This document shows, in pieces, positions 13,990-63,101 of a DNA stretch of 64,000 nucleotides. The stretch is from positions 144,638-208,637 of the forward strand of contig JBAZKE010000002.1 of the NCBI GenBank assembly GCA_041650915.1, written 5' to 3'. How positions within the stretch are numbered: the first letter of the stretch is position 1; the number at the start of each line of letters is the position of its first letter. The notes below the pieces were generated by a model, which worked only from the letters and a program-made list of their open reading frames with translations, was not told the origin of the DNA and made no database searches. A program made the translations under genes and the position numbers. The DNA is from Patescibacteria group bacterium (lineage in GTDB: Bacteria > Patescibacteriota > Patescibacteriia > UBA10025 > JAHIVO01).

Positions 13990-14001
13990 ACAACGTAATC
14001 G

Positions 14002-14594: not shown

Positions 14595-14596
14595 TG

Positions 14597-20373: not shown

Positions 20374-20376
20374 AGT

Positions 20377-21288
20377 CTATGCGGTTACCTTGTGTTGCGT
20401 CAGGAGCGCTGCTCCGATAACGCCAGTGCCGTACCCGAGCTCGGATACGGTGATGGGTATTTTTTTCAGTTCAGGGTAGATGAGGCATTTCCTGGCAGAA
20501 CGGATGGCTGGATGTATGAGCGGCCGGATGCTCGACAGCCCGCCGGTAAGCACAAGGATATCGGGGCTGAATAGGTGCAGTGTGTTTGCAATGCCGATGC
20601 CGAGATCGTGGGCCATGGCGGCGAGTATGGCGTTCGCATGGCGGTTGCCAGCACGCGCCCGTGCAACGATTTCGTATGAGGTGAGGGTTTTTCCGGTGCG
20701 TTTGCGGTACAGTTTTACCATTGCAGTGCCGGAGGCGAGCGCTTCAAAGTGGCCGCGCTGACCGCAGCTGCACCACGGCGATGTTGCTGCAATAGCTATA
20801 TGCCCGAGTTCAGTTGTATTGCAACCAGTCCGGTAGAGCCGCTTGTCAATTACGAGGCCGAATCCGATGCCGGTGCCGATTGCCATGACGGCGACGGTGC
20901 GGAATTTTTTTCCGGCCCCGACCGTCGCTTCGGCGAGCGCGCTCGCATGGACGTCGTTATCGATTGCTACGGTAACCCTGTACTTCTTTTCGAGGAGCTG
21001 TTTCAGGCGGACACCGTGCCAGTCCCGCGCTAGGTTATGCCCCCGCGTGACAACACCTTTTTCAGCATTGACGAGCCCTGTTGTGCCGATCCCGATTGCC
21101 CGCACCCGGTTCGAAAAAAAATAATCGATGCTCGTGCCCATGCATTTGAGGATGTTCTTTTTGGTTTTTTTGCCGATTAAAAATTGTTTGCTCTGCCTGA
21201 GCACACCGTTTGGGCCAACAAGCCCCGCCTGAATTTTTGTTCCGCCTACGTCGACGCCGATCGTGTACGTACCCATAGCGTAAAGCAT
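20377..21288 (-). CDS. ROK family glucokinase
   Basis: N-terminal IGVDVGGTKI. ROK zinc motif CSCGQRGHFE. 303 aa. Confidence 0.75.
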   Translation of the reverse strand: MLYAMGTYTIGVDVGGTKIQAGLVGPNGVLRQSKQFLIGKKTKKNILKCMGTSIDYFFSNRVRAIGIGTTGLVNAEKGVVTRGHNLARDWHGVRLKQLLEKKYRVTVAIDNDVHASALAEATVGAGKKFRTVAVMAIGTGIGFGLVIDKRLYRTGCNTTELGHIAIAATSPWCSCGQRGHFEALASGTAMVKLYRKRTGKTLTSYEIVARARAGNRHANAILAAMAHDLGIGIANTLHLFSPDILVLTGGLSSIRPLIHPAIRSARKCLIYPELKKIPITVSELGYGTGVIGAALLTQHKVTA

Positions 21289-21346
21289 TTAACCTTCCTA
21301 TTATAACAAAAAGCGGGTATAATAGGAATGCACTAAACGTTATTTT

Positions 21347-22546
21347 ATGAATCAGAAGGAAAAGAATCAAGAGCTGCTCACGCGAGGCGTTGCTGAAGTG
21401 ATCGTCAAGAAAAGTTTGCAGAAAAAGATCGAGAGCGGCGCAAAGCTCCGCGTTAAGCTCGGCGTCGATCCGACCGCACCGCATCTGCACCTCGGGCATA
21501 CCGTCGTCCTCAGAAAGCTCAAGCAATTCCAGGAGCTCGGGCACCAAGTCATTTTTTTAGTGGGCGATTTTACCGCCCGCATTGGAGATCCATCGGACAA
21601 GTTATCGGCACGCAAGCCGCTCGAGGGGAAGGAAATACAGAAAAACTGGGAAACGTACAAGGAGCAGGTCGGGAAGGTGCTCGACCTCCGGGAAGTCGAA
21701 ATACGGTTTAACAGCGAGTGGCACCAGAATATGGATTTTGCCGAACTCTTTCAGCTCACGAGCTTGTTTACGGTTAACCAGATGCTTGAGCGTGATATGT
21801 TTGAAAAGCGGATGGAGGCCGGTAAACCGCTGTGGATCCATGAGATGCTGTACCCGATACTGCAGGGGTATGATTCGGTTGCGCTCAGTGCGGACGTCGA
21901 GCTCGGCGGGACGGACCAGACGTTCAATATGCTCGCCGCACGGACGATACAGCCGACGTACGGGCAAGACCCGCAGGATATTATGACCGTTGACTTGCTT
22001 GAGGGAACCGACGGTAGTGAGAAAATGAGCAAGAGTATTGGCAATACGATCGATCTTACTGATACGGCGGGTGAGATGTTCGGGAAGACCATGTCGATTC
22101 CTGACAGCCTCATCGTGAAGTATTTTACGCTCTGCACCGGCGTGCCGCTCACGGAGATTAACTCAATTGCACAGGAGATGAAACGGGGGGCAAATCCGCG
22201 CGACTATAAGGTACGGCTCGCCCGCGAGCTGATCGCGATGTACCACGGCATCGCGGCTGCCGATAAGGCGGAAGCGGAATTCACCCGCGTATTCAAGGAA
22301 AAAAAAGCGCCCCGGTCAATGCCCGCGTACCAGCTGAAAAAAGAGGGCAGCTATTCGCTTATCGATATTATCACTGAAACGGGGCTCGCCCCATCGAAGA
22401 GCGAGGCGCGGCGCTTGATTGAGCAGGGTGGGGTCCAGTTCGACGGCATGCAGATTACGGATTGGAAGAAGAAGGTGCGCGTCACGGGCGGAATGGTACT
22501 GCAGGTTGGCAAGCGCAAGTTTCTCAAATTTACCTCTGGGGAGTAG
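21347..22546 (+). CDS. tyrS: Tyrosine--tRNA ligase
   Basis: GVDPTAPHLHLGH (HIGH) and KMSKSIGN (KMSKS). C-terminal S4-like domain. 399 aa. Confidence 0.9.
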   Translation: MNQKEKNQELLTRGVAEVIVKKSLQKKIESGAKLRVKLGVDPTAPHLHLGHTVVLRKLKQFQELGHQVIFLVGDFTARIGDPSDKLSARKPLEGKEIQKNWETYKEQVGKVLDLREVEIRFNSEWHQNMDFAELFQLTSLFTVNQMLERDMFEKRMEAGKPLWIHEMLYPILQGYDSVALSADVELGGTDQTFNMLAARTIQPTYGQDPQDIMTVDLLEGTDGSEKMSKSIGNTIDLTDTAGEMFGKTMSIPDSLIVKYFTLCTGVPLTEINSIAQEMKRGANPRDYKVRLARELIAMYHGIAAADKAEAEFTRVFKEKKAPRSMPAYQLKKEGSYSLIDIITETGLAPSKSEARRLIEQGGVQFDGMQITDWKKKVRVTGGMVLQVGKRKFLKFTSGE

Positions 22547-22731
22547 CGGAAGCATGCAACTACATCCAGCCTGTCGGTCTTGACGCGAAGTTTTGCGTAC
22601 GGCGGGAAGGGCGACTGAACGGCGGACACAGGGCGAAGATGGGCAATGCTTCCGTATGCAGCGCCACCGGGCAGGAGAGTGTGCAAGCTGCAGTCTTATT
22701 CATTGCGGTGTTAATTTGGTATACTGAGCGC

Positions 22732-23337
22732 ATGAATAATACGGCGAAAACATACACCAAGCTCGGGAAGCAGTATCTCGATGATATCGCAGACCTTGCA
22801 CCCGCCGAGCGCGAAGAGTTTATTCGGCGCCTGCCGAGAGGCAGTGCGGTGCTCGACGTCGGGTGCGCCGGAGGAAGAGACAGCGGAGCGTTTGTTGAGA
22901 GCGGTTTTCAGGTCGTTGGCATTGATTTGGTCGGTTTGTTTTTATCGGAAGCGCGCAAGCGCGTGCCTGCGGCAACGTTCCGCATGATGGATGTTTGTAA
23001 ACTCGACTTTCCGGATGAATCGTTCAACGCCGTGTGGGCGAATGCGATTCTTATGCACGTGCCTAAAAGAGACACCCTACGGGCACTCAAGGAGCTGCAG
23101 AGGGTGTGTAAGCCGTCCGGCTTGCTCCTCGTACGGGTGAAGCATGGGCAGGGGGAGAGAGCAGTGGCAGATAAACTGTCACGGGGCGTGAACCGCCTGT
23201 TCAGCTTTTTTACCGAGGATGAGCTGTCTCAATTAAGTGAGCAAGCGGGATTTACGGTTGAGTCGGCTGCGCTTGTTGAAGACGGCGCTGGCAGGGACGG
23301 AGTGCGGTGGGTCAGTGTGTGGGCGGTGAAGCGGTAG
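22732..23337 (+). CDS. Class I SAM-dependent methyltransferase
   Basis: Motif I VLDVGCAGGRD, post I, and motif II/III pattern (LLLVRVKHGQG). The ORF-track start at 22462 overlaps tyrS and is rejected. Start set at MNNTAK. Confidence 0.65.
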   Translation: MNNTAKTYTKLGKQYLDDIADLAPAEREEFIRRLPRGSAVLDVGCAGGRDSGAFVESGFQVVGIDLVGLFLSEARKRVPAATFRMMDVCKLDFPDESFNAVWANAILMHVPKRDTLRALKELQRVCKPSGLLLVRVKHGQGERAVADKLSRGVNRLFSFFTEDELSQLSEQAGFTVESAALVEDGAGRDGVRWVSVWAVKR

Positions 23338-23380
23338 CGCAGAGAGGGTTTATTTTTTCATGGTGGGTTTGTCTGTAAAA

Positions 23381-23417
23381 AAATGCAGCCCCCGACAGGT
23401 GCCGGGGTTGTTTCTCT
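23381..23417. terminator. Hairpin between convergent methyltransferase and GalT-like genes
   Basis: CCCCG-acaggtgc-CGGGG stem flanked by an A-run and a T-rich tract. Confidence 0.35.
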
Positions 23418-23435
23418 CTGCTGGTAAATGGCACG

Positions 23436-24434
23436 TTACTTGCCTCGGTAGAATTTTGCGGCGTCTTCAGGAGCCACTGAGTTGATGATAATCCTCGAGC
23501 CGAGCTCTACGCCAGCCCAGGTGTCACGGCGCGGGCACACCCGAAGGTAGAAGTACTCTCCTTGGTCGGTGATCGTCTGGTGCATGTAGTAGTTGTACGG
23601 CAGGCCGAGCTGGTTTACTTTTTTGATGATGTGGCGAAGCGCGTGCGCCACGGACTTGAGCTCTTCTTCTTCGAGCAGGGAGATGTTGTCAACCTGCCGC
23701 TTCGGCACGATCCACGCTTCATAGTTGTATGAGGAGGCGTACGGGCAGAATGCCGTGATGTACTTGTTGCTGAAAATGTTCCGCGGCCCCTTCGCCTCAT
23801 CGCGGGCAAGTTTTGCGTAGTATGAGGTGCCGTGGAGGATGCTATACTTTCGGGCGCGCGCCAGCTTATTGACGATGTGGCTCGGTACAAAACCTGCCGC
23901 TAAGATCTGTGAGTGTGCGTGCACGAGCGAAGCGCCAGCCTTACCGCCGTGATTCTTGAAGATAATGATGTACTTGACCTTTGGATCTTTTGAGAGCGCT
24001 TGTGTCCGCGCCACATAGGATTTCAGCACGCGGTACACGTGTGGCTCAGAGAATTCCGCCATCTCCTTGTTGTGGTGGGGTGTCTCGATAATGACTTCCT
24101 GGTGGCCGTACGCATTCGGATTTTTTTCGTGCACGAATGGAAAAATATTTTTGATGACCTTGATTTCCCACCACTGGTCGGGGCCCTCTTGGTACAGCGG
24201 CGGCTGGGACATCATTACCGTTTCCTGGCAAAAGGGGCAGTCTTTGGACTTGACCGGGACATCGTGGGGTTTTGCGGTGTCGTGCGGGCGTTTCGTCCGC
24301 TTCGGGGCGATGATAATGAAGCGGTCATGGATTTCATCAACGCGGATTTCACTGCGGATAAGCGGCACCTCAACCTCGCGGAGTTTGGGGCGTTTTGGAA
24401 TTGTTGTCTTTTTTACAGCTTTTTTTCTAGGCAT
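23436..24434 (-). CDS. Galactose-1-phosphate uridylyltransferase family (GalT-type HIT superfamily nucleotidyltransferase)
   Basis: CPFC zinc motif, HQEVIIETPHH, and HAHSQI (HxHxQ active site of the GalT branch). Lys-rich N-terminal extension. Last gene of the glucan operon. Confidence 0.65.
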   Translation of the reverse strand: MPRKKAVKKTTIPKRPKLREVEVPLIRSEIRVDEIHDRFIIIAPKRTKRPHDTAKPHDVPVKSKDCPFCQETVMMSQPPLYQEGPDQWWEIKVIKNIFPFVHEKNPNAYGHQEVIIETPHHNKEMAEFSEPHVYRVLKSYVARTQALSKDPKVKYIIIFKNHGGKAGASLVHAHSQILAAGFVPSHIVNKLARARKYSILHGTSYYAKLARDEAKGPRNIFSNKYITAFCPYASSYNYEAWIVPKRQVDNISLLEEEELKSVAHALRHIIKKVNQLGLPYNYYMHQTITDQGEYFYLRVCPRRDTWAGVELGSRIIINSVAPEDAAKFYRGK

Positions 24435-25905
24435 CTGGGTTAACTAAATGAGTATAGAGCTTGATGTACGCACTGGCGGAGTGGTCCCACGAAAAGTCCT
24501 TTTGCATGATCCGTTTGACCACAGTGTACCACGATTTTCGGTCGCTATACAGTTTAATGGCGCGCGTGAGCGCGGCGAGAAAGTCTTTCGTATCGTACGG
24601 GCCGAATACGAAGCCTTCGCCGCCGCTGGAGCCGCCGTTCCAGTCAGCGACGGTATCCTTGAGCCCCCCGGTCGCCCTGACGATGGGCAGCGTGCCGAAC
24701 CGCATTGCAATCATCTGCCCGAGCCCGCACGGCTCGAAGCGGGACGGCATGAGGAATGCGTCTGATCCGGCGTATATCTGCTGGGCGAGCGCGGCGTTGA
24801 ATTCGATATGCACGGACGTTTTCTCGGGGAATTGTTTTGCGATCGACAGCATCATATTTTCGTACTTTTTTTCGCCGGTGCCCAGCACGACGAACTGCAC
24901 GTCGTGTTCAAAGAATTTTTCAGCTACTTCGTAGATGAGGTCGACGCCCTTCTGGTCGACGAGCCGTGAGACAATGCCGAAAAGCGGCACGTCACCGCGT
25001 ACGGGCAGTGCGCAATGTTTCTGGAGCGCAGCCTTGCACTTTGCTTTTCCGGAAAGGTCTCCGGATGAGTACGGCACGGCGATTCGTTTATCGGTTTCCG
25101 GATTGAAGCTGTCGACATCGATTCCGTTGAGGATTCCAGTGAGGTCGTCAGCGCGTTCGTTTAAGTCGTTGTTGAGGCCGCATCCGTATTCCTCCGTGAG
25201 AATCTCCCGTGCGTACGTCGGGCTGACCGTATTGATGTAGTCGCTCGCGAGGATTGCCTGGCGTAAGCTGGAAATGTGCCCGTCCTGCTGGCGCTGCAGC
25301 GTGGGATAATCGCCAGCCGTGATTCCGAGAATGTGAAATATCGTTTGGGCTTCGTGCCATCCCTGGTGGGCGAGATTGTGAATCGTGAGGAGTGTCTTAA
25401 TGTTTTTCAGCTTCGGGTCGTTTCGTGCGAGGATTTTCAGCAGGACGGGGATCATGCCCGTGTGCCAGTCGTTGCAGTGGATGAGATCGGGGTACCAGCC
25501 AAGCGACTCAAAGAGCGAAAAGCATGACCGCGCGAAAAACGTAAAACGTTCGGCTTCCCGATTCGGGTTGTCGGACGGCCCTGCGGTATCAAAGTATACC
25601 CCGTTCTGGCCGAGGTAGTGATAGTTGTCGATGAGGTAGATTGGGACGTCGCTCCCGGGCAGCGGCGTTTGGAATATGCCGATCGATTCTTCCGTGCCAT
25701 TGAATGGAACCGGGATGCCCTCGGCGATTGGCGTTGATGGGTACTTTGTGTTATCAATGCTCCCGTATTTCGGTAGCGCAATCCGCACATCGATCCCTCC
25801 GTGCTTGAGCGCTTTTGGGAGCGCGCCGACGACATCGCCGAGGCCGCCCACCTTGGCGAGCGGGTTGAGCTCGGCGCCGACAAAGAGAACTTTGAGCTGT
25901 TTCAT
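24427..25905 (-). CDS. glgA: Glycogen/starch synthase (GT5 family), copy 1
   Basis: N-terminal LFVGAELNPLAKVGGLGDVVGALPKAL (the KxGGL motif). GT-B C-terminal motifs. 492 aa. Confidence 0.85.
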   Translation of the reverse strand: MKQLKVLFVGAELNPLAKVGGLGDVVGALPKALKHGGIDVRIALPKYGSIDNTKYPSTPIAEGIPVPFNGTEESIGIFQTPLPGSDVPIYLIDNYHYLGQNGVYFDTAGPSDNPNREAERFTFFARSCFSLFESLGWYPDLIHCNDWHTGMIPVLLKILARNDPKLKNIKTLLTIHNLAHQGWHEAQTIFHILGITAGDYPTLQRQQDGHISSLRQAILASDYINTVSPTYAREILTEEYGCGLNNDLNERADDLTGILNGIDVDSFNPETDKRIAVPYSSGDLSGKAKCKAALQKHCALPVRGDVPLFGIVSRLVDQKGVDLIYEVAEKFFEHDVQFVVLGTGEKKYENMMLSIAKQFPEKTSVHIEFNAALAQQIYAGSDAFLMPSRFEPCGLGQMIAMRFGTLPIVRATGGLKDTVADWNGGSSGGEGFVFGPYDTKDFLAALTRAIKLYSDRKSWYTVVKRIMQKDFSWDHSASAYIKLYTHLVNPDA

Positions 25906-25920
25906 ATTTTTAAATAATTG

Positions 25921-26805
25921 TTAGATGGCAGGTACCTGTTCTTTGAGTTTTTCGTAGATTGAGTACGGCACTGAGAAGTAGTCCCACTGGCACCGGATTG
26001 CCTCGTGCTTGGTAAAATTAATGTCTCCATGGTAGTCGCTGCCGCCTGTGATGAGGAGCCCATGGGCGAGTGCGAAGCTCTGGTAGTGTTCAATCTGGTG
26101 CCAGCTATGGTATGGGGAGAGCACCTCAATGCCTTCGAGGCCGGCATCAATGAGCTCGCGTATCAGCTTATCCCCGTCGTAGTTGAGCTGCTGTCCCGGG
26201 TGGGCGAGCACAGCGAATCCTCCTGATTTTCGTACGATCGCTATTGCTTCATCGGTCGGCAGTTCTGATACGCGGAGTGCGGCGGGTTTGTCATAACCCA
26301 TGAAGTATTTCACTTTTCCAAAGAAATCCTGCTTGTCCGGGGGGAGCTCTCGCTGCATTTTTTTGATATTTTTTTGGTACCGCTCGAGCTCCCTGATGAC
26401 GTGCAATACGCCGCGGTTTACCGCGGGACCGTTAAAGATAGCGGTTTCATCGAGCGTGAAGCCCTGCTCCTGGAGGCTGTGAATCGACTGTCGCACATTG
26501 TGTTCATTATCTTCCTGGAGTTTCCGGAGCGCACGGGAGAGCTCCGTGTCGCCGAGTTCAAAACAGTAGCCGAGCAGGTGGAGGTTTTGGTTACGGTACC
26601 GGGTGTATATCTCAACTCCCGGAACAACGTGGATGCCGAATTCATCCGCGCATTCGATTGCCTCATCGATGCCATTGATTCCATTGTGGTCGGTCAGCGA
26701 AAGTACCGCAGTGCCGTTCTCTTCCGCACGCTTCATGAGGCTGCTGCATGAGCGGTCGCCGTCCGAGTAGTGTGAGTGGGTATGGAGATCAATTGTTTGT
26801 TCCAT
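25921..26805 (-). CDS. PHP-domain metal-dependent phosphoesterase
   Basis: IDLHTHSHYSDG ... LSLTDHNGINGIDEA. PHP family His/Asp motifs. 294 aa. Confidence 0.7.
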   Translation of the reverse strand: MEQTIDLHTHSHYSDGDRSCSSLMKRAEENGTAVLSLTDHNGINGIDEAIECADEFGIHVVPGVEIYTRYRNQNLHLLGYCFELGDTELSRALRKLQEDNEHNVRQSIHSLQEQGFTLDETAIFNGPAVNRGVLHVIRELERYQKNIKKMQRELPPDKQDFFGKVKYFMGYDKPAALRVSELPTDEAIAIVRKSGGFAVLAHPGQQLNYDGDKLIRELIDAGLEGIEVLSPYHSWHQIEHYQSFALAHGLLITGGSDYHGDINFTKHEAIRCQWDYFSVPYSIYEKLKEQVPAI

Positions 26806-26807
26806 AG

Positions 26808-27797
26808 TTATGGCTTACGGTATCGTTTTTTGAGCATCGCCGTCAGCGTAACGCCGGAAAAGCGTGCGAGCTCCCTGAAGTCCCGTTTATCCGGGTAGTA
26901 GTTGAACCCGATGACGTTGAATACGGCTTGGACAAACACGGTCGCATTCCACAGCTCGTCAAAGTTTTTAAAACCGCGGTACTGCCGTTTAAATTTACTG
27001 TGGAGGGAACGCTGCCAAGCGGAATGGCGTGAAGCGCGCATCCAGACGGTCACCACGTCCTTCATGATTGAAGCCCAGCCGACGTTTTCCCAGTCGATAA
27101 TTTTTGGCCGTCCGCCGGCTTCGAGCATGTGGGGTGCATACAGCTCCTGGTGCGCGAGGACCCGGCGGGTAGTGCGGTACACCGGCCCGTACCGCTTGAA
27201 TTCCCGCCGGATGAGCAAACCGGCGTTCGGCCACCGGATAAACGATTCCACCAACGGGAGGTTCGGGCCGATGAACTGCCAGAGGTAGTTCAGCGTCTGC
27301 GGCGCGTACAGGAGCCTCTTGAAGTTTGACGGAAGGTCTTTTTCCCGGATGCTGTGGAGTTCCCTGAGGAGATTGAGCAGCCACCGCTGCCGGTCTTCCG
27401 TGAAGAAGGAAGGGACGAAGCGGATGTTGCCGCCGTTAATATTTTGCGGCTTACCGCCGACGTATTCGCGTATGTACCAGGCTCGCGGGCCGATCTCTGA
27501 GCTTAAAATGAGAGGAGCGCTTTGCCGGAGGAGCTTGTGCGGCGAGCTATTGATGTAGCGCAGGAAAAGGATCTCGCGGGCGAACTTCTGGTTAGTCAGG
27601 TGGTCGCAGGAGCGGGGGTATATGCTGGTTTTGAACAGCGCTTGTTGCCCGTCTTTTTTCCCGACCGCAATGTAGTACCGGCTTCCGAACTTGATTTTTT
27701 TGATGGGGATAAAACGTTCGCCCCTGTGCAGTTCCCTGATTACCCGGCGTGCGCGTTCACGGTGCCGGCGTTTCGTAGCGGTAGTGCCTTTGATCAT
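26808..27797 (-). CDS. Phosphotransferase-family (APH/ChoK-like kinase fold) protein, divergent
   Basis: C-terminal region AHQELYAPHML ... KIIDWENVGW resembles the APH catalytic loop and IDWE motif, but with an atypical HQE in place of HxD. Basic N-terminus. 329 aa. Confidence 0.4.
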   Translation of the reverse strand: MIKGTTATKRRHRERARRVIRELHRGERFIPIKKIKFGSRYYIAVGKKDGQQALFKTSIYPRSCDHLTNQKFAREILFLRYINSSPHKLLRQSAPLILSSEIGPRAWYIREYVGGKPQNINGGNIRFVPSFFTEDRQRWLLNLLRELHSIREKDLPSNFKRLLYAPQTLNYLWQFIGPNLPLVESFIRWPNAGLLIRREFKRYGPVYRTTRRVLAHQELYAPHMLEAGGRPKIIDWENVGWASIMKDVVTVWMRASRHSAWQRSLHSKFKRQYRGFKNFDELWNATVFVQAVFNVIGFNYYPDKRDFRELARFSGVTLTAMLKKRYRKP

Positions 27798-27799
27798 AG

Positions 27800-29179
27800 C
27801 TATTTTCTGGTGATCAGGTCTTTCTTTTCCTTGAGCTCTTTGATCCGGTTCCGAATCTGCGCGGCGCGTTCATACTCCTGCGTCCTTGCCGCCTCGTGCA
27901 TTTGTTTTTCCAAGTTGCCGACCATGCTATTGAATTCAGCTTCGGGTATGTAGGGTATGTCGGTCGTTATGCGCTGCGTCACGTCCTCGTCTGCAAGTTT
28001 TGCGAGCGTGTCAACCTTGCCCGACCGCTGCCAATCGAATGCGGTGAAAATGATGCGCCGGTAAAGCTCCTCGGCGCGTTTTTTTTCAGCCGGGCCTACC
28101 GCCGCGGCCTGTACGACGAGGTTGAGATCCCGCGCGCCCGCCTCAATCATTTCGATGCTCCACCACGGCATCGCCGAAGCCCACCAGTACTGGTCTGAAT
28201 GGAGCGCACGGTCGAGCAGGGAACGCGTCGTCGGGTAGCTTTTCGCGGTTTTTTTCATCGCATCGACGCTCTGTATCGCGAGATTCGTGAGTTCCCACTG
28301 CATCGCGTGGATTTCATTATCTTTATCCTGCCATCTGGAAAACGGAGTATTGCGTTCAATGTCCCGCTTCATGAGAGCCCATGAGGACGGCCGCGGATCC
28401 ACTGAAGATCGTTTGGTGAAGTGGTCTGGCAGCTCTGAGAGCGTGACGGAGGTGAGTTTTTTATTTTCATACAGGTCAAAAAGGAGCTGCTCGAGCCCGG
28501 GACGGTGGTGTCCAAACGTTTCGCCGTCCATTGCGGTTACGAGATATTCATTACCGCCAACGCGGGTTCCGAGGAGCTGGATGAGCATGTCACTCGTGAA
28601 TACGCTCATGCCGATTTCAGCGGAGAGGATCCTGAAGCTCGCTTCACGTTCACGGAAAAAAATGAAGAAATCATCGTGGCCTCTGAGCGTGTAGATTTGC
28701 GACCAGTCGATTTTTTTTAGATCGCCGGAATGTGCGAGCTCGTCGAGGATGAGCCATCGGAAACCCATGGAGGCGGCGATATCGCCGACTTTTCTGTCGT
28801 ACGCCATCTCGGGCGGGAAGAATCCAGCCGGAGCGTACGCCGCGCCGAAGAACTTTTTATTTGTTTCCGTGTTGAGCTCAATTTGCCGGATGATTTCTTT
28901 TTTCGGCATGAGGGGGAGAAAGGGGTGGTACTTTGCGCTGCCGGTGAGCTCTACCTGGCCGCGTTCGGCGAGGAGCTTGAGATCGGCAATCACATCGAGG
29001 CAGCCGTACTGGTTGAAGAGTTCGGTGAGGCCGGCATTGATATTGATCGTCGCCCGGGCGTCAGGGCGTTGCTTTAAGCCCGCGAGCACCTTCCGATAGC
29101 TCTCGTTTGCAATCTTTCTGACCCAGTACTCTTTCTGGGTCGGAGGCTGGTAGATGTGGAGGAAGTTTGCCCAGTACAT
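27800..29179 (-). CDS. Glycoside hydrolase family 57 protein (alpha-glucan-active), with C-terminal UVR-like motif
   Basis: GH57 signature regions are present: HIYQPP (HQP), FFPPEMAY (nucleophile Glu), AMDGETFGHH (acid/base Asp). C-terminus has EYERAAQIRNRIKELKE resembling a UvrB/C UVR motif. 459 aa. Confidence 0.7.
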   Translation of the reverse strand: MYWANFLHIYQPPTQKEYWVRKIANESYRKVLAGLKQRPDARATININAGLTELFNQYGCLDVIADLKLLAERGQVELTGSAKYHPFLPLMPKKEIIRQIELNTETNKKFFGAAYAPAGFFPPEMAYDRKVGDIAASMGFRWLILDELAHSGDLKKIDWSQIYTLRGHDDFFIFFREREASFRILSAEIGMSVFTSDMLIQLLGTRVGGNEYLVTAMDGETFGHHRPGLEQLLFDLYENKKLTSVTLSELPDHFTKRSSVDPRPSSWALMKRDIERNTPFSRWQDKDNEIHAMQWELTNLAIQSVDAMKKTAKSYPTTRSLLDRALHSDQYWWASAMPWWSIEMIEAGARDLNLVVQAAAVGPAEKKRAEELYRRIIFTAFDWQRSGKVDTLAKLADEDVTQRITTDIPYIPEAEFNSMVGNLEKQMHEAARTQEYERAAQIRNRIKELKEKKDLITRK

Positions 29180-29199
29180 TGGTGTTGGTGGTGTTAGTA

Positions 29200-30453
29200 T
29201 TAAGCTGAAATTTTTTTGCCGCCGAGGAACCGTACGGCAGCCCCCTCATTCGTAGCGAGGTAACTGTCCGCAGTCGACCTAAAGGTCATTTTTTGCTGCC
29301 ACGTTCGTGCGAGCGAAATGATCGTCGACGCGAGCTTTACGGCTTGTGGATCGCGCGGGCTGACCAGGTCTGCAGCTGAGAGCAGCTCACCCGTTTTTTT
29401 TGAAATGATCTCGAGGCTCCACCACGGCTTTGCGGACGCCCACCAGAATTGGTCAGATGCATACCGCCTGTCGAGCAGTTCTCGTGCCGTCGCGTAGTTC
29501 TCGTGCGCCTTATGCCGTTCGATGAGGGCAGTGACGCGCCTGAGCAGCTCCCACTGGTTTTTATGGATGTCATTATGCGGGTCATTCCACAGCACGTACG
29601 GGTTGCCGCGCCTCATTTCACGTTCCTGTGTTGACCAGCTTGCCTTTCGGGGGCTGATAACCTCATTCTTCGTGTAGGTATGGAGAAGTTCGCTCATTGT
29701 CACCGTACGGATATTGTGGGAGGTGACAAGCCGTTTCCAGTAGGAGTCCCAGCCCTTCCGGTGGTGTCCGAGATTTTCGCCGTCCATGGCCGTAATGAGG
29801 GCTGTTCCGCTTCTGCTGTCTTGCCTAATCGTTTCCCAGAAACTCTCGAGCCGTTTCGGATTGCCATGAAAGGAAAAGTAGTCGCTAATCACTCTGTTTC
29901 GGAATACGATATTGAGCTGAGTGTTTTTAATGCGGTAGCGAGCGTTGAATAAGGTTGTGCTGAGTGTTCCGTTTTTAGATATTTCATCGGCGATAAGCCA
30001 CCGGTAGCCGAGTTTTTCGATCACCGGCGCAATTTTTCCTCCGTACGCCATTTCGGGCGGAAAAAATCCACGCGGGCGGTATACGGGGCCGAAGTGCAGG
30101 CGGTTGACCCGGGCGTTGAGTTTGACTTGCCGTCTGATTTCATGGGCTGGGATGAGCGGCAGGATCGGGTGGTACTGCGCAGAGCCGGTGAGTTCGATCT
30201 GCTTCCTCTTGGCGAGCCGTGCAATCCGGCCGATGATATCCGCCTGCCCGCACTCGGCGAGCTGCTCGGTCAGGGAGCCGGTGACATTGAGGGTGATTTT
30301 TATGCGGGGGTTTTTCGTGAGGATCGCGCAGAGCGGGCGGTAGCTTTCACGAGCTACCTTGCGGACGATTGCAGGCGACCAGTTTGGAGGCTGGTATACG
30401 TGGAAGAAGTTTGCCCAGCGAAGCGGTTGGCGCTTAGTGCTTTGATTGTGCAT
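29200..30453 (-). CDS. Glycoside hydrolase family 57 protein, paralogue 2
   Basis: Clear paralogue of the preceding gene: FFHVYQPP, FFPPEMAY, AMDGENLGHH. No UVR tail. 417 aa. Confidence 0.7.
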   Translation of the reverse strand: MHNQSTKRQPLRWANFFHVYQPPNWSPAIVRKVARESYRPLCAILTKNPRIKITLNVTGSLTEQLAECGQADIIGRIARLAKRKQIELTGSAQYHPILPLIPAHEIRRQVKLNARVNRLHFGPVYRPRGFFPPEMAYGGKIAPVIEKLGYRWLIADEISKNGTLSTTLFNARYRIKNTQLNIVFRNRVISDYFSFHGNPKRLESFWETIRQDSRSGTALITAMDGENLGHHRKGWDSYWKRLVTSHNIRTVTMSELLHTYTKNEVISPRKASWSTQEREMRRGNPYVLWNDPHNDIHKNQWELLRRVTALIERHKAHENYATARELLDRRYASDQFWWASAKPWWSLEIISKKTGELLSAADLVSPRDPQAVKLASTIISLARTWQQKMTFRSTADSYLATNEGAAVRFLGGKKISA

Positions 30454-31909
30454 CGTGCTTATTTTTAATGGCGCGACCGTAGAGCTGCACGTATTTTTTA
30501 GCGGGGAGCTCCCACGAGTACGACTGCTGCATCCCTCTCCACGTCAGGTATTCCCATGCCTGCGTGTATTTATAGTTTTCGAGTGCACGGGTCAGCGCGA
30601 TGAGGAACGCATCGCGCGCGTACTGCCGGAAAACGAATCCGTTTCCCTTCCTCGTTTTCGGATTGTAGTTCATGATCGTGTCAGAGAGCCCTCCCGTTTC
30701 GTGGACGATGGGTATTGAACCGTACCGGAGGCTCTTGAGCTGGGAGATGCCGCAGGGCTCAAACCGGGATGGCATGAGAAACATATCTGAGCCGGCATAC
30801 ACTTTGGATTCCATCTCTTCCGTGAAGGGGGTATAGATGGCGAGTTTCTTGGGGTACCGGCGCGCTACCTTTTTGAAGAAAATGACATACTCCCTGAAAC
30901 CGCTGCCAACGATGGCGATTTGCAGGTTCATGCGCATGAGCGTATCGATTGTTTCCATGATGAGCTTGAAGCCCTTTTGTTCGGTAAGGCGGTTAACCAC
31001 GCCGATCACTGGGATATCCGGGTTTTTTTCGAGGTTCAACTTTTTTTGGAGCACGAGCTTATTTTTCTTTTTGCGGCTGAGCGTATTCCAGTCGTATTTG
31101 AATTCAATGTTACCGTCGAATGCCGGATTATGGACGGTGTAGTCGATCCCATTGATGATTCCGTGCAGGTAATCTTTACGGTCGCTGAGGTACTTTTCGA
31201 GGCCTTGGCCGAATTCAGGCGTCGTGATTTCTTCCGCATACCGTTCGCTGACCGTATTGATGGCGTCTGCGTGGAGAATGCCGCGCTTGGAAAAATTGAG
31301 ATATTTCAATTTGCCGATACGCTGCAGCGGATTGCCTTTCCCGTCATCGGCGTAGTATTTTTTCAGTTTCCACCAGTCTCCGCCCGACTGAAAGGTGAGG
31401 TTGTGTATCGTAAAAACTGATGCCGTATTCCGCAGCGAGGGGTACTTGGAACCCTCAAACCGCATCATATTTGGAATGAGTCCGGCTTGCCAGTCGTGGC
31501 AGTGGATGACGTCGGGCTTCAGCCTCTTAAGCTCAATCAGTTTGAGCGCTGCAATGCTGAACGTGCAAAATCGGAGGTTATCGTCCGGGTGCCCGTATAT
31601 TTTTGACCGCCCCGTGAAGAGCTTTTCGTTGGCTACGAAGTAGATCCGGAGGTTCTTGCTGAAGTCGAACGCGTAGTAGGAAATTGGAAATTTATTCCTG
31701 CCGACGACGACCGTCGATTTAACGTTCAGTTTTTCGAGTGGGAGGCCCTGCTGCTTTATGAAGCTATAGTACGGAGTAATAATCGAAACCATGTGCCCGA
31801 TGTTCGCGAGCGCTTTCGGCAGTGCCTTGGCGACGTCGCCGAGGCCGCCCGTTTTAGAGTAGGGAGCGACTTCTGAGGCGATACTCGCAATGTGGAGGCT
31901 GGAAGTCAT
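30434..31909 (-). CDS. glgA: Glycogen/starch synthase (GT5 family), copy 2
   Basis: IASEVAPYSKTGGLGDVAKALPKAL KTGGL motif. 491 aa. 20-nt overlap with the GH57 paralogue. Confidence 0.85.
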   Translation of the reverse strand: MTSSLHIASIASEVAPYSKTGGLGDVAKALPKALANIGHMVSIITPYYSFIKQQGLPLEKLNVKSTVVVGRNKFPISYYAFDFSKNLRIYFVANEKLFTGRSKIYGHPDDNLRFCTFSIAALKLIELKRLKPDVIHCHDWQAGLIPNMMRFEGSKYPSLRNTASVFTIHNLTFQSGGDWWKLKKYYADDGKGNPLQRIGKLKYLNFSKRGILHADAINTVSERYAEEITTPEFGQGLEKYLSDRKDYLHGIINGIDYTVHNPAFDGNIEFKYDWNTLSRKKKNKLVLQKKLNLEKNPDIPVIGVVNRLTEQKGFKLIMETIDTLMRMNLQIAIVGSGFREYVIFFKKVARRYPKKLAIYTPFTEEMESKVYAGSDMFLMPSRFEPCGISQLKSLRYGSIPIVHETGGLSDTIMNYNPKTRKGNGFVFRQYARDAFLIALTRALENYKYTQAWEYLTWRGMQQSYSWELPAKKYVQLYGRAIKNKHDAQSKH

Positions 31910-31918
31910 GTATGCTTG

Positions 31919-32383
31919 TTAGAAGATTTTTGTCTGCGCGCAGCAGATCGCCACCGCCAGTGCGTCAGCCGCGTCGTCGGGCTTCGGTATGCTCTCGAGG
32001 TTGAGCTGGCGCTGAACCATTTTTTGTATCTGGGTTTTCGTAGCGAGGCCGTAGCCGGTGAGTGCCTGTTTGATCTGCATGGGGGTGAATTCACGCATCG
32101 GCACGCGGTGCTGCCATACGGTGAGCACGGCGACGCCTCGCGCCTCACCGACGGAGAGGGCGGTCTTTACGTTTTTTGAAAAGAAGAGCTTCTCAATGCC
32201 AACGGTCGCTGGATGGTATTTCCGGAGGAGCTTCGAGAGCTCACGGCTGATGGTATCGATGCGGCTCCCGAACGCTTCGCGGGGACCCGAGGTAATGACC
32301 CCGTACGCTACGGCTTTGAGGCGCGATGGCGTGTGTTCGATGATGCCATAGCCCGTAATCGCGAGCCCAGGGTCGATGCCCAT
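31919..32383 (-). CDS. ruvC: Crossover junction endodeoxyribonuclease RuvC
   Basis: MGIDPGLAITGYGIIEH N-terminus and RuvC acidic residues. Start set at the internal Met; the ORF-track N-extension is rejected. Lies downstream of yebC, a common arrangement. Confidence 0.85.
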   Translation of the reverse strand: MGIDPGLAITGYGIIEHTPSRLKAVAYGVITSGPREAFGSRIDTISRELSKLLRKYHPATVGIEKLFFSKNVKTALSVGEARGVAVLTVWQHRVPMREFTPMQIKQALTGYGLATKTQIQKMVQRQLNLESIPKPDDAADALAVAICCAQTKIF

Positions 32384-32396
32384 GGTCAGGCGTTTT

Positions 32397-33122
32397 TTAG
32401 AGGCTCGCATTGGTGGAGCAGTTACCCACGTCATCATTTTCCTCAAGCTCTTCGAGCAGTCCAGATATCCGGTCGCGGACTTTTTGCTCTTCGATTGCCA
32501 CCATATTCTGTGGAATCAGCTCGGCTTCAGCTGACTCGGCGGCGAAGCCGCCCTGCTCGAGCTTCTGCTTGATCGCGGGCAGCTCTTCCACCTTGGTTGT
32601 GATGGTAAAACCGTCTTCGTCCTCGGAAAAATCTTCTGCACCAGCATCAATAACCGCGAGCTCGAATGTTTCACGGTCCGGTACGGCCTTTTTCGCGACG
32701 CGTATAATGCCCCGTTGATTGAACATCCACAGGACACTACCGGTACTCCCGAGCTTGCCGCCGTACTTTGCGAGCGTACTGCGAATGGTATTCGCCGTCC
32801 GGTTCTTGTTATCCGTTGCCGCCTCAATGACGATTGCAACGCCGTTGGGGCCGTATGCCTCGTACGTCACTTCTTCGATGCTTTCGCCTTCGAGCTCGCC
32901 CGTGCCACGCTTGATGGCGCGGTCGATATTGTCATTCGGCATGTTTGATGAGCGAGCTTTGTCAATCGTCATCCGCAACCGGAAGTTCATTTCGGGATTG
33001 CCGCCCCCATGCTTCGCTGCGAGCGTGATCGCATTCGCCAGTTTGGTAAAGAGGTTGCCCCTTCGCTGGTCCGAGACTCCTTTTTGTCGTTTTATCTGTG
33101 ACCACTTTGAGTGCCCTGACAT
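32397..33122 (-). CDS. yebC: YebC/PmpR family DNA-binding transcriptional regulator
   Basis: MSGHSKWSQIKRQKGVSDQRRGNLFTKL... N-terminus is diagnostic. 241 aa. Confidence 0.9.
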   Translation of the reverse strand: MSGHSKWSQIKRQKGVSDQRRGNLFTKLANAITLAAKHGGGNPEMNFRLRMTIDKARSSNMPNDNIDRAIKRGTGELEGESIEEVTYEAYGPNGVAIVIEAATDNKNRTANTIRSTLAKYGGKLGSTGSVLWMFNQRGIIRVAKKAVPDRETFELAVIDAGAEDFSEDEDGFTITTKVEELPAIKQKLEQGGFAAESAEAELIPQNMVAIEEQKVRDRISGLLEELEENDDVGNCSTNASL

Positions 33123-33162
33123 TGTAGCGTTTTTTTAATAAAAAAAATAAAGGTACCGCTAC

Positions 33163-33191
33163 ATTATAGCATATTTTGGCAAAAAATTCAA
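33163..33191 (-). promoter_or_regulatory. Sigma70-like promoter for yebC-ruvC-glucan operon (TTGAAT-17-TGcTATAAT)
   Basis: On the minus strand, a -35 TTGAAT, a 17-nt spacer and an extended -10 TGCTATAAT lie about 40 nt upstream of yebC. Confidence 0.5.
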
Positions 33192-33192
33192 T

Positions 33193-33221
33193 TTGAACAG
33201 ATGGCGTTTTTTAACTATACT
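33193..33221 (+). promoter_or_regulatory. Sigma70-like promoter for SIS isomerase gene (TTGAAC-17-TATACT)
   Basis: -35 TTGAAC, a 17-nt spacer and a -10 TATACT, about 27 nt upstream of the ATG at 33248. Divergent from the yebC promoter. Confidence 0.5.
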
Positions 33222-33247
33222 GTAGGTACGCTACTGACAAAATATAT

Positions 33248-34330
33248 ATGAAAAAAAAGAGTATGGCGCTCGACAGCCCCAAGAGGGTCGAGCAGCTCGA
33301 TACGCAGGGCATGGTACAGTCCATTGAGTCGCTCGCGCTGCAGTGCGAGCAAGCGTGGAATGATGTGAAGCGGATCCGCGTACCGCGGCAGTACCGCACG
33401 GTGGAAAATATTGTCATCAATGGCATGGGGGGTTCGGCGCTCGGAGGGCATATCATTGCGGCACTTTTTGAGCGCGAGCTCAAGAAGCCGCTCCACGTGG
33501 TCAATAGCTATACGGTTCCGGGCTTTGTGAGCAGGAGTACGCTGTATGTCATTTCGAGCTACTCAGGCACAACCGAGGAGCCGGTTTCGACATTCCGCGA
33601 AGCTCGGAAGCGGGGAGCGAAAGTCATGTTTATCGGCGCAGGGGGGACGATCGCGGCGTACGCGAAACGGTATCGGATCCCTGCTTACATTTTTGAACCC
33701 CAGTTTAACCCGTCGGGCCAACCGCGGATGGGGCTCGGGTATTCAATCGTCGGCCAGGTTGCGCTCTTCAGGCGGCTAGGGCTGCTCTCGGTGAGCGATG
33801 CGGCAATGCGAAGTGTTGTAGAGCGTATTATTAAGCTGCACCACGAGTACGGAGTGAGGGTTCCGGCAAGCCGTAATGCCGCAAAGGAAGCGGCCCTCGC
33901 ACTCCACGGGGCGATACCGGTATATGTCGGCGCGCAGCACCTCGCCGGCAACGCGCACGTCTGCGCGAACCAGACGAACGAGAATGGCAAGACATTTGCG
34001 GCATACTTTACCGTATCAGAGCTCAATCACCACCTCATGGAGGGGCTGCGGTATCCGGCATCAAATCCACGCAACCTTCATTTCGTGTTTTTTGAATCGG
34101 GCAGGTACCTGCCGAAGATACAGAAACGCTTTACCATCACACAGAAGGTGCTCCGAAAGAGCGGGATTCCGTTCGAGGCGGTGAGGGTGCGTTCGACAAG
34201 CGCGCTCGAGCAGGTTTTTGAGGTACTGGTATTTGGCAGCTACCTCAGCTTTTACCTCGCACTCCTACGCGGCATTGACCCTTCTCCGATTCCATTCGTC
34301 GATTACTTTAAGAAGCAGCTGCAGCAGTAG
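33248..34330 (+). CDS. Bifunctional phosphoglucose/phosphomannose isomerase family (SIS domain, archaeal-type PGI/PMI)
   Basis: Two SIS-like segments (INGMGGSALGGH ... VISSYSGTTEE). Overall length and pattern match the PGI/PMI family. Confidence 0.65.
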   Translation: MKKKSMALDSPKRVEQLDTQGMVQSIESLALQCEQAWNDVKRIRVPRQYRTVENIVINGMGGSALGGHIIAALFERELKKPLHVVNSYTVPGFVSRSTLYVISSYSGTTEEPVSTFREARKRGAKVMFIGAGGTIAAYAKRYRIPAYIFEPQFNPSGQPRMGLGYSIVGQVALFRRLGLLSVSDAAMRSVVERIIKLHHEYGVRVPASRNAAKEAALALHGAIPVYVGAQHLAGNAHVCANQTNENGKTFAAYFTVSELNHHLMEGLRYPASNPRNLHFVFFESGRYLPKIQKRFTITQKVLRKSGIPFEAVRVRSTSALEQVFEVLVFGSYLSFYLALLRGIDPSPIPFVDYFKKQLQQ

Positions 34331-34416
34331 CATTCCGTACACAGCAAAAAAGTTCCCGCATCCATGCTTGGCGGGGACTTTTTTAGTACGGAGGTGAGAA
34401 GTGGTATACTGATGGT

Positions 34417-38668: not shown

Positions 38669-38684
38669 TATTCATTGTTACGGT

Positions 38685-45489: not shown

Positions 45490-46371
45490 CTACGTGCGTT
45501 GTTTAGTGATTGAGCGCAGGTATTGCAGGAGCTCGACTGACAGGTCGTCCCGCATAAGGGCAAAATCAATGTTTGCCTTGAGGTATTCGAGCTTGCTGCC
45601 CGTATCGTAGTATGTGCCGTTTATAATTTCACAGGCGTATACCGGTTCATCTTTCATCAATTTTTGGACGGCATCGACGAGCCAGAGCTCGTTATCTCTG
45701 CCAGGGGCCAGATTGGTGAGGTGCGGCATGATGCCCGGGGTAAAGACATACCCGCCGTGCGTCGCGAGGTTCGAGGGGGCGGATCCGGGTTTCGGTTTTT
45801 CGACAATTGATTTTATTCGAAAAATATTATCCCTGACCGGCGTTACGTCCGCGATGCCGTACTTTGAAACATCCTTTTTATTTGGGATGCGGACGGCGCT
45901 AATGACTGATTTTCCAAACTCTCCGTAGACATCAATGAGCTGCTTGAGCCGCGGCGGGGCGCTGTAAATGAATTCATCGCCCCACAGGACGGCGAATGGC
46001 TCGTCGTCGAGCAGGTGGCTCGCCGAGAGAATGGGCGTCCCGTTGCCGTAGCAGCCTTTTTGCCGCACATAGATAAAATTGGCCATCTCAGCAATGTCCC
46101 TCATCTGCCGCAGGAGCTCTGTTTTTCCGGTTTGCTCCAGTTGCCGCTCGAGCTCGTACGAATGGTCAAAGTGGTCTTCGAGTGACCGTTTTTGCCAACT
46201 CGTAACGATGATAATGTCTTTGATGCCCGACTGTACCGCTTCCTCGACCACGTACTGGATTATCGGCTTGTCGACAATCGGCAGCATTTCTTTCGGCTGT
46301 GCTTTTGTGGCAGGCAGAAAGCGCGTCCCGAAGCCTGCAGCGGGTATGATGACTTTGTGGATTTTTTTCAT
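45490..46371 (-). CDS. galU: UTP--glucose-1-phosphate uridylyltransferase
   Basis: KVIIPAAGFGTRFLPATKAQPKEMLPIVDKPIIQY, the GalU N-terminal signature. Confidence 0.85.
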   Translation of the reverse strand: MKKIHKVIIPAAGFGTRFLPATKAQPKEMLPIVDKPIIQYVVEEAVQSGIKDIIIVTSWQKRSLEDHFDHSYELERQLEQTGKTELLRQMRDIAEMANFIYVRQKGCYGNGTPILSASHLLDDEPFAVLWGDEFIYSAPPRLKQLIDVYGEFGKSVISAVRIPNKKDVSKYGIADVTPVRDNIFRIKSIVEKPKPGSAPSNLATHGGYVFTPGIMPHLTNLAPGRDNELWLVDAVQKLMKDEPVYACEIINGTYYDTGSKLEYLKANIDFALMRDDLSVELLQYLRSITKQRT

Positions 46372-62914: not shown

Positions 62915-62935
62915 ATTTATATATTATGGGTTAAT

Positions 62936-63100: not shown

Positions 63101-63101
63101 A

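Follow-up and report, generated by a model that had tools for sequence, protein, structure and literature searches.

A 64,000-nucleotide stretch of contig JBAZKE010000002.1 from a Patescibacteria group bacterium (assembly GCA_041650915.1), here called the window, carries on its minus strand a dense cluster of genes for two glycogen synthases, two glycoside hydrolase family 57 (GH57) proteins, a protein with the aminoglycoside phosphotransferase (APH) fold, a PHP-domain phosphoesterase and a GalT-like protein. The reading that we favor, with some reservation, is that this locus is the extended form of a Patescibacteria-wide operon for cytoplasmic storage of an alpha-glucan of the glycogen type, to which an accessory route through sugar-1-phosphate and nucleoside diphosphate (NDP)-glucose would have been added. 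An earlier examination made from the letters alone (the sequence-only reading) had proposed a non-canonical alpha-glucan operon here, and this proposal stands: the glycosyltransferase family 5 (GT5) and GH57 genes are each duplicated and divergent, with intact catalytic motifs. Across related loci the near-universal core is glgA plus the gene that we call GH57a, which is the universal partner of glgA.

Organization of the glucan operon

Nine minus-strand open reading frames (ORFs) are packed within positions 33122-23436, with spacings of -50 to +20 nt, in the order yebC-ruvC-glgA2-GH57b-GH57a-kinase-fold-PHP-glgA1-GalT-like. The order and tight packing described by the sequence-only reading hold for all nine genes. 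That reading had also placed a divergent APH-fold protein and a PHP phosphatase inside the operon, and both are there; the former barely passes its Pfam family (PF01636, 25.1 versus 23.2 bits) and is backed by a fold match, and the latter scores 56 bits against PF02811. The genes and two motifs of interest are as follows.

32397..33122, minus strand: yebC/pmpR-family regulator, first gene of the unit (NF001030, 305 bits versus a cut-off of 243)
31919..32446, minus strand: ruvC, Holliday-junction resolvase (NF000711, 210 bits versus a cut-off of 163)
30434..31909, minus strand: glgA2, GT5 ADP-glucose-type glycogen synthase (TIGR02095), 9 nt past ruvC; the copy that precedes the GH57 genes
29200..30453, minus strand: GH57b, 417 aa, GH57 catalytic domain only; predicted nucleophile Glu134, acid/base Asp224
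27800..29179, minus strand: GH57a, 459 aa; GH57 domain (Glu124, Asp218), helical region, flexible linker and C-terminal UVR helical hairpin
27827..27922, minus strand: UVR (UvrB/UvrC-type) motif, GH57a residues 420-451 (PF02151, 41.9 bits versus a cut-off of 21.5)
26808..27797, minus strand: APH-fold (kinase-like) protein, 329 aa, variant subfamily (PF01636 plus fold match)
27129..27152, minus strand: codons of the variant catalytic loop HQELYAPH, residues 216-223 of the kinase-fold protein (from alignment)
25921..26805, minus strand: PHP-domain phosphoesterase, probably of the TrpH/YciV type, 294 aa (PF02811)
24427..25905, minus strand: glgA1, GT5 ADP-glucose-type glycogen synthase (TIGR02095); its stop overlaps the GalT-like start by 8 nt
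23436..24434, minus strand: GalT-branch HIT nucleotidyltransferase (DUF4931/GalT-like), 332 aa (PF01087 and DUF4931 matches)

The family match of the ruvC ORF starts only at residue 21-22, so its TTG start probably lies too far upstream.

The glycogen synthases and the GH57 proteins

Both synthases are full-length members of the ADP-glucose-type GT5 family, scoring 551 bits (glgA1) and 490.6 bits (glgA2) against a TIGR02095 cut-off of 328, and the K-x-G-G-L-type (KTGGL) and EPCG catalytic motifs are visible in the alignment. The two share 36% identity, and GH57a and GH57b share 40%. The sequence-only reading had recognized two synthase paralogs and two GH57 paralogs, and these are indeed old pairs; the GH57 copies are far from the near-identical recent duplicates that it had named as a possible outcome. 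Related genomes, where it had suggested looking for the same duplication, already have both pairs in Saccharimonadia, which together with the identity values rules out a recent origin. Its further picture of tandemly duplicated GT5-plus-GH57 modules gives way to a different one, in which glgA-GH57a is the ancestral core and GH57b, the kinase-fold gene and the glgA1-GalT-like pair are additions of the extended form. Classical GlgB, GlgC and GlgP, which it had not seen, are likewise missing from the 39 window ORFs that were screened, among them all those outside the operon with 400 aa or more; GlgX was not found in the window either.

Membership of both remaining enzymes in GH57 is clear from PF03065 (144.5 bits for GH57a and 103 bits for GH57b, cut-off 21.2), and the nucleophile Glu in conserved sequence region 3 (CSR-3) and the acid/base Asp in CSR-4 are invariant across distant homologs. 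The suggestion that they act as branching enzyme or glucanotransferase finds no match among the characterized subfamilies, neither of which fits in score, length or motif. Branching-enzyme equivalog models give 23-33 bits against cut-offs of 920-1000 and span only about 70 residues. The proteins have 417 and 459 aa instead of about 520-550, Pfam finds no DUF1957 domain in either, and CSR-3 reads FPPEMA, beginning with Phe and not with the branching-type W-L-P-E-C (CSR-5 ends Trp-Trp). The GH57 branching-enzyme subfamily was rejected on these grounds. The best sequence match of both proteins in the Protein Data Bank (PDB) is the 4-alpha-glucanotransferase of Thermococcus litoralis, at only 31-40 bits over the catalytic domain; that type (about 650 aa) was rejected as well, given the weak score, the absence of its C-terminal beta-sandwich domain and the residue at fingerprint position 23, which is Lys in T. 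litoralis-type enzymes (PMC6037648) and, by our own reading against that source, Thr in GH57a and Asn in GH57b. On the same reading, the motif fingerprint of these candidate phyla radiation (CPR) proteins appears to be a mixture of the published types. We conclude that GH57a and GH57b probably form a GH57 subfamily of their own, whose reaction type is not readable from sequence.

No other protein of the cluster is as conserved as GH57a; the search for its family returned more than 3,700 clusters, of which the top 120 all have identities of at least 57%. Its AlphaFold model (mean predicted local distance difference test score [pLDDT] 86.4) matches a glucanotransferase, branching enzymes and amylopullulanases alike, with template modeling (TM) scores of 0.56-0.64. 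The model predicts that a disordered linker (residues 397-408) leads into a hairpin of two helices (residues 413-451). The protein goes under the NCBI name "UvrB/UvrC motif-containing protein".

Conservation of the operon across related loci

Related loci were collected in two ways. One genome per GTDB species was scanned with the kinase-fold protein, yielding 27 loci, and, so as not to select on the kinase, a sample of 80 metagenome loci was fetched with GH57a as the sole query and analyzed with our own ORF calls and profiles. The comparison covered 115 related loci, and co-occurrence was counted among loci with at least 5 kb downstream.

In the GH57a-only sample, glgA lies directly upstream of GH57a in 52 of the 59 loci with room for it, and the next gene downstream is of the kinase fold in 36 of 68. 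By catalytic motif, 11 of these 36 kinases have the Glu/His pattern of the window protein, 18 have canonical Asp/Asn, 1 has Glu/Asn and 6 are unclear. Moreover, all 10 of the "unknown" ORFs downstream of GH57a that were tested with Pfam belong to PF01636. Other GH57a loci have a minimal glgA-GH57a pair followed by unrelated genes. The sequence-only reading had made its case depend on a conserved association of the kinase-like and PHP proteins with glgA and GH57. For the kinase the association holds well beyond the window's lineage, in Saccharimonadia, in WWE3 and in the GH57a-only sample; for PHP it holds only in part, the gene being missing from many loci.

Close relatives of the window's locus are labelled Kerfeldbacteria. 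All ABY1/Kerfeldbacteria-like loci that span the operon keep yebC-ruvC-glgA2-GH57b-GH57a-kinase-(PHP)-glgA1-GalT, with a kinase that is only 39-56% identical. Nine loci from Saccharimonadia, WWE3 and other groups keep glgA-GH57-GH57a/UVR-kinase between different flanks, with kinase identity down to 22-29%; downstream of the kinase these loci have an unknown gene, another GH57-like gene, a second glgA and an alpha-glucan phosphorylase (TIGR02094, 570 bits). In a closed Nomurabacteria genome the extended cluster recurs, here with a canonical kinase, and in some relatives a GH15 glucoamylase-like gene is inserted after ruvC. Sister clusters based on GT4, which replaces GT5, still have the kinase and/or the GalT-like gene, next to glycosyltransferases of the retaining type. 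Two of these (L118 819-7918 and L116 1-7814) have GT4 (and GT2) in place of GT5 and end with the GalT-like gene; L118 also has an APH-fold gene and adjoins GDE_C and sucrose-phosphatase-like genes. In two Parcubacteria loci (L020 and L021) a related kinase stands apart from any glucan cluster, a fact that restricts how far the kinase-glucan association can be generalized.

The Saccharimonadia/WWE3-type clusters also contain two recurrent proteins of about 300-316 aa without a Pfam match (L025 10847-11797 and L026 7533-8435), one of which follows the kinase while the other replaces GH57b.

A kinase-fold protein with an altered catalytic loop

The AlphaFold model of the kinase-fold protein is of high confidence (pLDDT 92.4), and Foldseek aligns it to macrolide and aminoglycoside phosphotransferases with E values down to 1e-8 and TM scores of only 0.5-0.65; the matches are various small-molecule phosphotransferases, among which no specific family stands out. 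A sequence search of solved structures gave nothing meaningful. The protein has the hallmarks of the APH/eukaryotic-like kinase fold: two lobes, a beta3 Lys (Lys56), an alphaC Glu (Glu75) and a Mg-binding Asp (Asp235, in IDWEN). These three residues are invariant in an alignment of 15 homologs, which points to retained nucleotide and metal binding. The catalytic loop departs from the fold. The Brenner motif H-x-D-x-x-x-x-N is replaced by H216-Q-E218-L-Y-A-P-H223, with Glu for the Asp and His for the Asn, and Saccharimonadia homologs of 20-25% identity share the Glu/His pattern.

A profile search of 1.84 billion cluster representatives found 274 relatives, 112 of them at E values of 1e-10 or better. 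Among the best 60 or so of the 274, almost all have Glu (a few have Gln) together with His, and canonical Asp/Asn loops occur only among the weaker matches. The protein thus appears to belong to a small, fast-evolving and apparently CPR-restricted subfamily with an altered active site. Indeed, it is among the least conserved proteins of the neighborhood, while GH57a and the GalT-like protein are among the most conserved, about level with tyrosyl-tRNA synthetase and the penicillin-binding protein. Maltokinase, which the sequence-only reading had offered as a candidate identity, did not survive: no match was found in NCBIfam, by PDB sequence search or among the 50 fold matches shown, and the canonical catalytic Asp/Asn are replaced. 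Other named kinase families are unsupported for the variant and the canonical slot kinases alike.

Variant and canonical slot kinases can barely be aligned to each other, and bridging loops exist (HGDLYPNN, HGEVYPNN and HGEVYPPH). Tandem kinase genes follow GH57a in several loci, among them L050 10011-12047 (canonical plus Glu/His variant), L073 5836-7769 (Glu/Asn plus canonical) and L069 8319-10403 (first copy untypable). In L070 1370-3403 the pair is fused into a 677-aa double kinase. The simplest reading is that the kinase types arose by duplication and divergence within the slot, with one copy kept per lineage.

The GalT-like protein and its partners

The GalT-like protein has a Cys66-x-x-Cys69 zinc site and the motif His172-x-His174-x-Gln176. 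Its closest solved structure is the ADP-glucose phosphorylase At5g18200 of Arabidopsis (1z84; 129 bits, E 2e-36, residues 28-330), ahead of an archaeal GalT (86 bits) and the Escherichia coli GalT (59 bits). It falls below the class I GalT cut-offs (TIGR00209, 88.6 versus 102.1 bits; NF008724, 103.5 versus 448 bits) and is named "DUF4931 domain-containing protein" by NCBI.

Its distribution is tied to that of the other additions. A second glgA accompanies it in 19 of 19 loci, and the kinase is present in 17 of the 19 loci with the GalT-like gene, in 21 of 24 with a second glgA and in 14 of 15 with a second GH57. In contrast, the GalT-like gene (39 of 115 loci) and GT35 phosphorylase (17 of 115) never share a locus.

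The PHP phosphoesterase and the yebC-ruvC linkage

The PHP protein aligns its predicted metal-binding motif DLHTHS to 2yb1. Its top NCBIfam match is NF041577 (140 bits versus a cut-off of 400), the RNase RNM model gives 98 versus 375, and its best near-full-length matches are the 3',5'-bisphosphonucleotide phosphatase Cv1693 (2YB1) and E. coli RNase AM (7UG9). By these similarities it would belong to the nucleotide-directed TrpH/YciV group. The gene is absent from many otherwise identical loci (L013, L017, L019, L033, L034 and others), which excludes it as a core member, and it is found with either kinase type. TrpH-type PHP genes occur in 27 of the 115 loci and a second PHP type in 7, including Saccharimonadia loci where it stands beside the GT35 gene; no similarity between the window PHP and this Saccharimonadia gene was detectable. 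PHP is a sporadic, optional addition to the cluster. For the sequence-only reading's idea of a dedicated kinase/phosphatase pair that works on glucan there is therefore weak support at best, PHP being optional and probably of the nucleotide-directed TrpH/YciV type. Elsewhere in the window (11204-12346) lies a DHH-family protein with weak similarity to NrnA, an oligoribonuclease/3'-phosphoadenosine 5'-phosphate (pAp) phosphatase, so the operon PHP may be redundant for pAp or nanoRNA turnover.

The same reading had found the linkage to yebC-ruvC odd; inherited synteny explains it best. In the Saccharimonadia locus L026 the strand that codes for the ruv genes carries, in order, yebC, ruvC, a PHP-like gene, the glucan cluster (on the opposite strand), ruvA and ruvB. 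The glucan cluster thus sits inside a widespread yebC-ruvC-ruvAB neighborhood, which argues for an inherited position and not for a functional tie to recombination. Functional coupling to yebC-ruvC was set aside on the basis of this gene order.

Proposed pathway and alternatives

In the storage reading that we favor, GlgA would elongate alpha-1,4 chains from NDP-glucose, and GH57a would perform chain transfer or branching for the build-up of the polymer, with GH57b as a specialized paralog. The kinase-fold protein would act on a small sugar or oligosaccharide linked to GH57a, with sugar-1-phosphate as the likeliest product, and the HIT enzyme would interconvert glucose-1-phosphate and NDP-glucose (probably ADP-glucose) for GlgA1. 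Taken together, the extra genes would make up an accessory route from sugar through sugar-1-phosphate and NDP-glucose to glucan, for supply or for remodeling, and the window kinase would be a derived variant of the canonical kinases that occupy the same slot in sister lineages. No N-terminal signal sequence is obvious by eye. The mutual exclusion of the GalT-like gene and GT35 fits two alternative links of glucan to glucose-1-phosphate.

Several points weigh against this reading. A protein without the canonical Asp/Asn, and with Gln in some members, may be no kinase, and the slot kinases, variant and canonical alike, give no match above noise to any family of anomeric sugar kinases. The kinase is missing from about half of the GH57a loci and so is not essential to the core, and the co-occurrence counts given above ignore shared ancestry. 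Since the GH57a model matches all GH57 classes evenly, branching, disproportionation and hydrolysis are indistinguishable. The formation of ADP-glucose from ADP and glucose-1-phosphate is unfavorable by about 10-13 kJ/mol (our own estimate from textbook free energies), so the HIT enzyme could have a synthetic role only if coupled to the synthase. With a GalU-like gene present in the window, UDP-glucose could be the donor and the GalT-like protein an ordinary Leloir-type transferase. Finally, glgC, pgm or glgB may lie beyond the 64 kb seen.

The same genes admit other accounts. A cycle of glucan phosphorylation and dephosphorylation, in which the kinase-fold protein phosphorylates the glucan and PHP removes the phosphate and so controls solubility and turnover, would suit a kinase gene that follows the glucan-acting GH57a directly (gaps of 2-10 nt), the recurrence of PHP genes of two subtypes and the known ability of the APH fold to phosphorylate hydroxyls of oligosaccharide-like aminoglycosides. 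We consider it unlikely: PHP is missing from many kinase-bearing loci, its closest relatives act on nucleotides, the Saccharimonadia PHP is not detectably similar to it, and no operon protein contains a carbohydrate-binding module, a GWD-type dikinase domain or a dual-specificity phosphatase. The kinase-fold protein could instead be regulatory, as a protein kinase or pseudokinase that governs the activity of GlgA or GH57, possibly by docking on the UVR hairpin of GH57a. Loss of the canonical catalytic residues, the existence of Gln variants, weak similarity to CotS, Bud32 and YihE-type protein kinases and an evolution much faster than that of its neighbors all speak for this, as do the tandem and fused canonical-plus-variant pairs, which resemble kinase/pseudokinase pairs. 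The invariant Lys56, Glu75 and Asp235 suggest that nucleotide and metal binding were kept, and the best fold matches are small-molecule phosphotransferases; a regulatory role thus seems quite unlikely to us. Slimmer still are the chances that we give to a GlgC-independent route at a cost of one ATP per glucose, with the kinase phosphorylating C1 of glucose or of a GH57a product and the HIT enzyme, co-produced with GlgA1, running as a reverse ADP-glucose phosphorylase that feeds this synthase directly. GlgA1 and the HIT enzyme would then be a reversible, ADP-catalyzed substitute for glucan phosphorylase, which would explain why the GalT-like gene and GT35 never share a locus.

It is also conceivable that only glgA and GH57 are functionally linked, and that the strong synteny found in the small genomes of CPR bacteria has kept the kinase-fold, PHP and GalT-like genes in place as unrelated passengers. 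Indeed, synteny of the whole neighborhood (phosphoglucose isomerase, tyrosyl-tRNA synthetase, ROK kinase and penicillin-binding protein) is likewise conserved in the window's lineage, the minimal glgA-GH57a pair precedes unrelated genes in many loci, and the two Parcubacteria loci carry the related kinase elsewhere. This account is weakened because the kinase slot persists where flanking synteny is lost, in Saccharimonadia, WWE3, Nomurabacteria and the GT4-based clusters; moreover, the slot is filled by two very divergent kinase types, and the GalT-like gene is bound to a second glycosyltransferase gene wherever it was counted (19 of 19 loci). We regard it as very doubtful. A GlgE-like route, with the kinase as a maltokinase analogue and a GH57 protein polymerizing maltose-1-phosphate, appears highly improbable. 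Maltokinase is itself a kinase-fold enzyme, the kinase gene adjoins GH57a and no GlgC was seen in the window; set against this are the failed maltokinase searches in NCBIfam, PDB sequences and folds, the absence of GlgE (GH13_3) and TreS from the window and the 115 related loci, and the constant presence of bona fide GT5 synthases, which account for polymerization.

Relation to known glycogen systems

Glycogen metabolism by GT5 and GH57 enzymes is already known as a pathway type. In Sulfolobus acidocaldarius both amyA (GH57) and glgA are needed for glycogen, and deletion of amyA abolishes it (PMC8158581). A review proposes GH57 "amylases" as the missing branching enzyme where the classical one is lacking (PMC11046441). 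By analogy, the operon logic would resemble that of archaeal amyA-glgA more than that of the classical bacterial glgBXCAP. As in the S. acidocaldarius glg cluster, a GT5 synthase adjoins a GH57 protein of about 400-460 aa whose catalytic dyad is intact, some relatives add genes for a GH15 glucoamylase-like protein and a TIGR02094-type phosphorylase, and no GH13 branching enzyme was found in the 64-kb window or the related loci. The Patescibacteria locus differs in its duplicated GH57 and glgA, the UVR hairpin, the kinase-fold gene and the GalT-branch HIT enzyme. With the classical GlgC-GlgA-GlgB system it shares ADP-glucose-type synthases, both of which pass TIGR02095; unlike in that system, none of GlgC, GH13 GlgB, GlgX and GlgP was found in the window, and GH57 stands where GlgB would be expected.

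The GalT-like protein shares the HxHxQ motif and the Cys-x-x-Cys zinc site with Arabidopsis At5g18200 (1Z84/2H39), from which it is distant; an overlap with a glycogen synthase gene, as in the window, is a context undescribed for the plant enzyme. One salvage pair of an anomeric sugar kinase and a nucleotidyltransferase is AmgK-MurU. A precedent for pairing an APH-fold kinase with a GalT-family enzyme is NahK with class II GalT, in the bifidobacterial galacto-N-biose/lacto-N-biose (GNB/LNB) pathway (bioRxiv 10.64898/2026.09.13.751320). As in the NahK and AmgK pairs, a kinase-fold gene and a GalT-family gene share a cluster with glycosyltransferases that would use the product. Unlike NahK, AmgK and the maltokinase Mak, the window kinase is no member of these families by sequence, has Glu/His for Asp/Asn and adjoins GH57a, not the GalT-like gene. 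The PHP protein lies well below the equivalog cut-offs of the TrpH/YciV enzymes, sits in a glucan operon and is optional across loci. With the glucan phosphorylation systems (GWD/PWD dikinases with SEX4 phosphatase in plants, laforin in animals) the locus would share an analogy of logic at most, as no PPDK-like dikinase domain and none of their other defining domains was found in any operon protein.

Literature searches for this operon in Patescibacteria, CPR and Saccharibacteria returned only generic mentions of GH57 and glycogen genes, and those for ADP-glucose phosphorylase mostly plant papers. In the searchable literature no description was found of the operon, of the GH57 subfamily with the UVR motif or of the kinase-fold subfamily with Glu/His. 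The Patescibacteria, which account for a large part of bacterial diversity, are energy-poor symbionts almost untouched by biochemistry. The public names of GH57a and the GalT-like protein (UvrB/UvrC motif, DUF4931) hide a likely role in glucan metabolism. The locus brings to bacteria the question, still open for archaea, of how glycogen is branched where the classical branching enzyme is lacking. It also offers a candidate alternative way of supplying or recycling NDP-glucose, and a natural series of kinase-fold proteins that have exchanged the catalytic Asp/Asn for Glu/His within one genomic slot. Should the accessory genes turn out to be passengers, a core CPR storage pathway would still be better annotated.

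Transcription signals and genomic setting

The remaining features of the region are the following.

33163..33191, minus strand: promoter-like site TTGAAT-17-TGcTATAAT with an upstream TG, 41 nt 5' of the yebC start codon (10/12 consensus matches)
23390..23407, minus strand: terminator-like GC-rich hairpin, 29 nt past the GalT-like stop; 7 pairs, 6 of them G-C (consensus match)
20377..21288, minus strand: ROK-family sugar kinase (glucokinase-like); syntenic neighbor in related loci, outside the transcription unit
33248..34330, plus strand: bifunctional phosphoglucose/phosphomannose isomerase, divergent from the operon promoter region; conserved neighbor
45490..46371, minus strand: GalU-like UTP-glucose-1-phosphate uridylyltransferase (TIGR01099, 324 bits versus a cut-off of 326.8), 13.6 kb away

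The promoter-like site is the best sigma-70-like one on the minus strand of the region, and the hairpin is the strongest terminator-like one on that strand; both calls are consensus matches only, and total site counts are no higher than in shuffled sequence. Their positions fit a single transcription unit for the nine genes, which is plausible, and co-transcription of the glucan genes with yebC-ruvC is likely in the window's lineage. No riboswitch or other Rfam element was found in 20000-36000. Other flanking genes encode tyrosyl-tRNA synthetase and a class A penicillin-binding protein. The genes yidC (minus strand), dnaA and dnaN lie at 13210-17664, and cumulative GC skew reaches its minimum at 14-16 kb. 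A gap of about 0.9 kb at 13990-14915 probably holds the replication origin, and because yidC/dnaA/dnaN coincide with the skew minimum, the operon would sit a few kb (about 6 kb) from the origin.

The GalU-like gene, which the sequence-only reading did not list, is a possible source of NDP-glucose near the operon. It adjoins a carbohydrate ABC substrate-binding protein with weak MalE/GanS similarity (44098-46371).

Beyond the isomerase gene, 35994-42331 encodes GT87-like and DUF2079 membrane proteins of glycosyltransferase type, plus unannotated ORFs of 526 and 541 aa; L001 shows synteny for the GT87 genes and a 525-aa ORF, and L033 has a DUF2079 gene at its flank. An 803-aa protein at 54036-56447 is an unusual fusion of two ATP-grasp modules (D-Ala-D-Ala ligase-like and ATP-grasp_4). 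The last segment of the window, 62001-64000, has a GC content of 0.39 versus about 0.54 elsewhere and may be foreign or intergenic-rich DNA.

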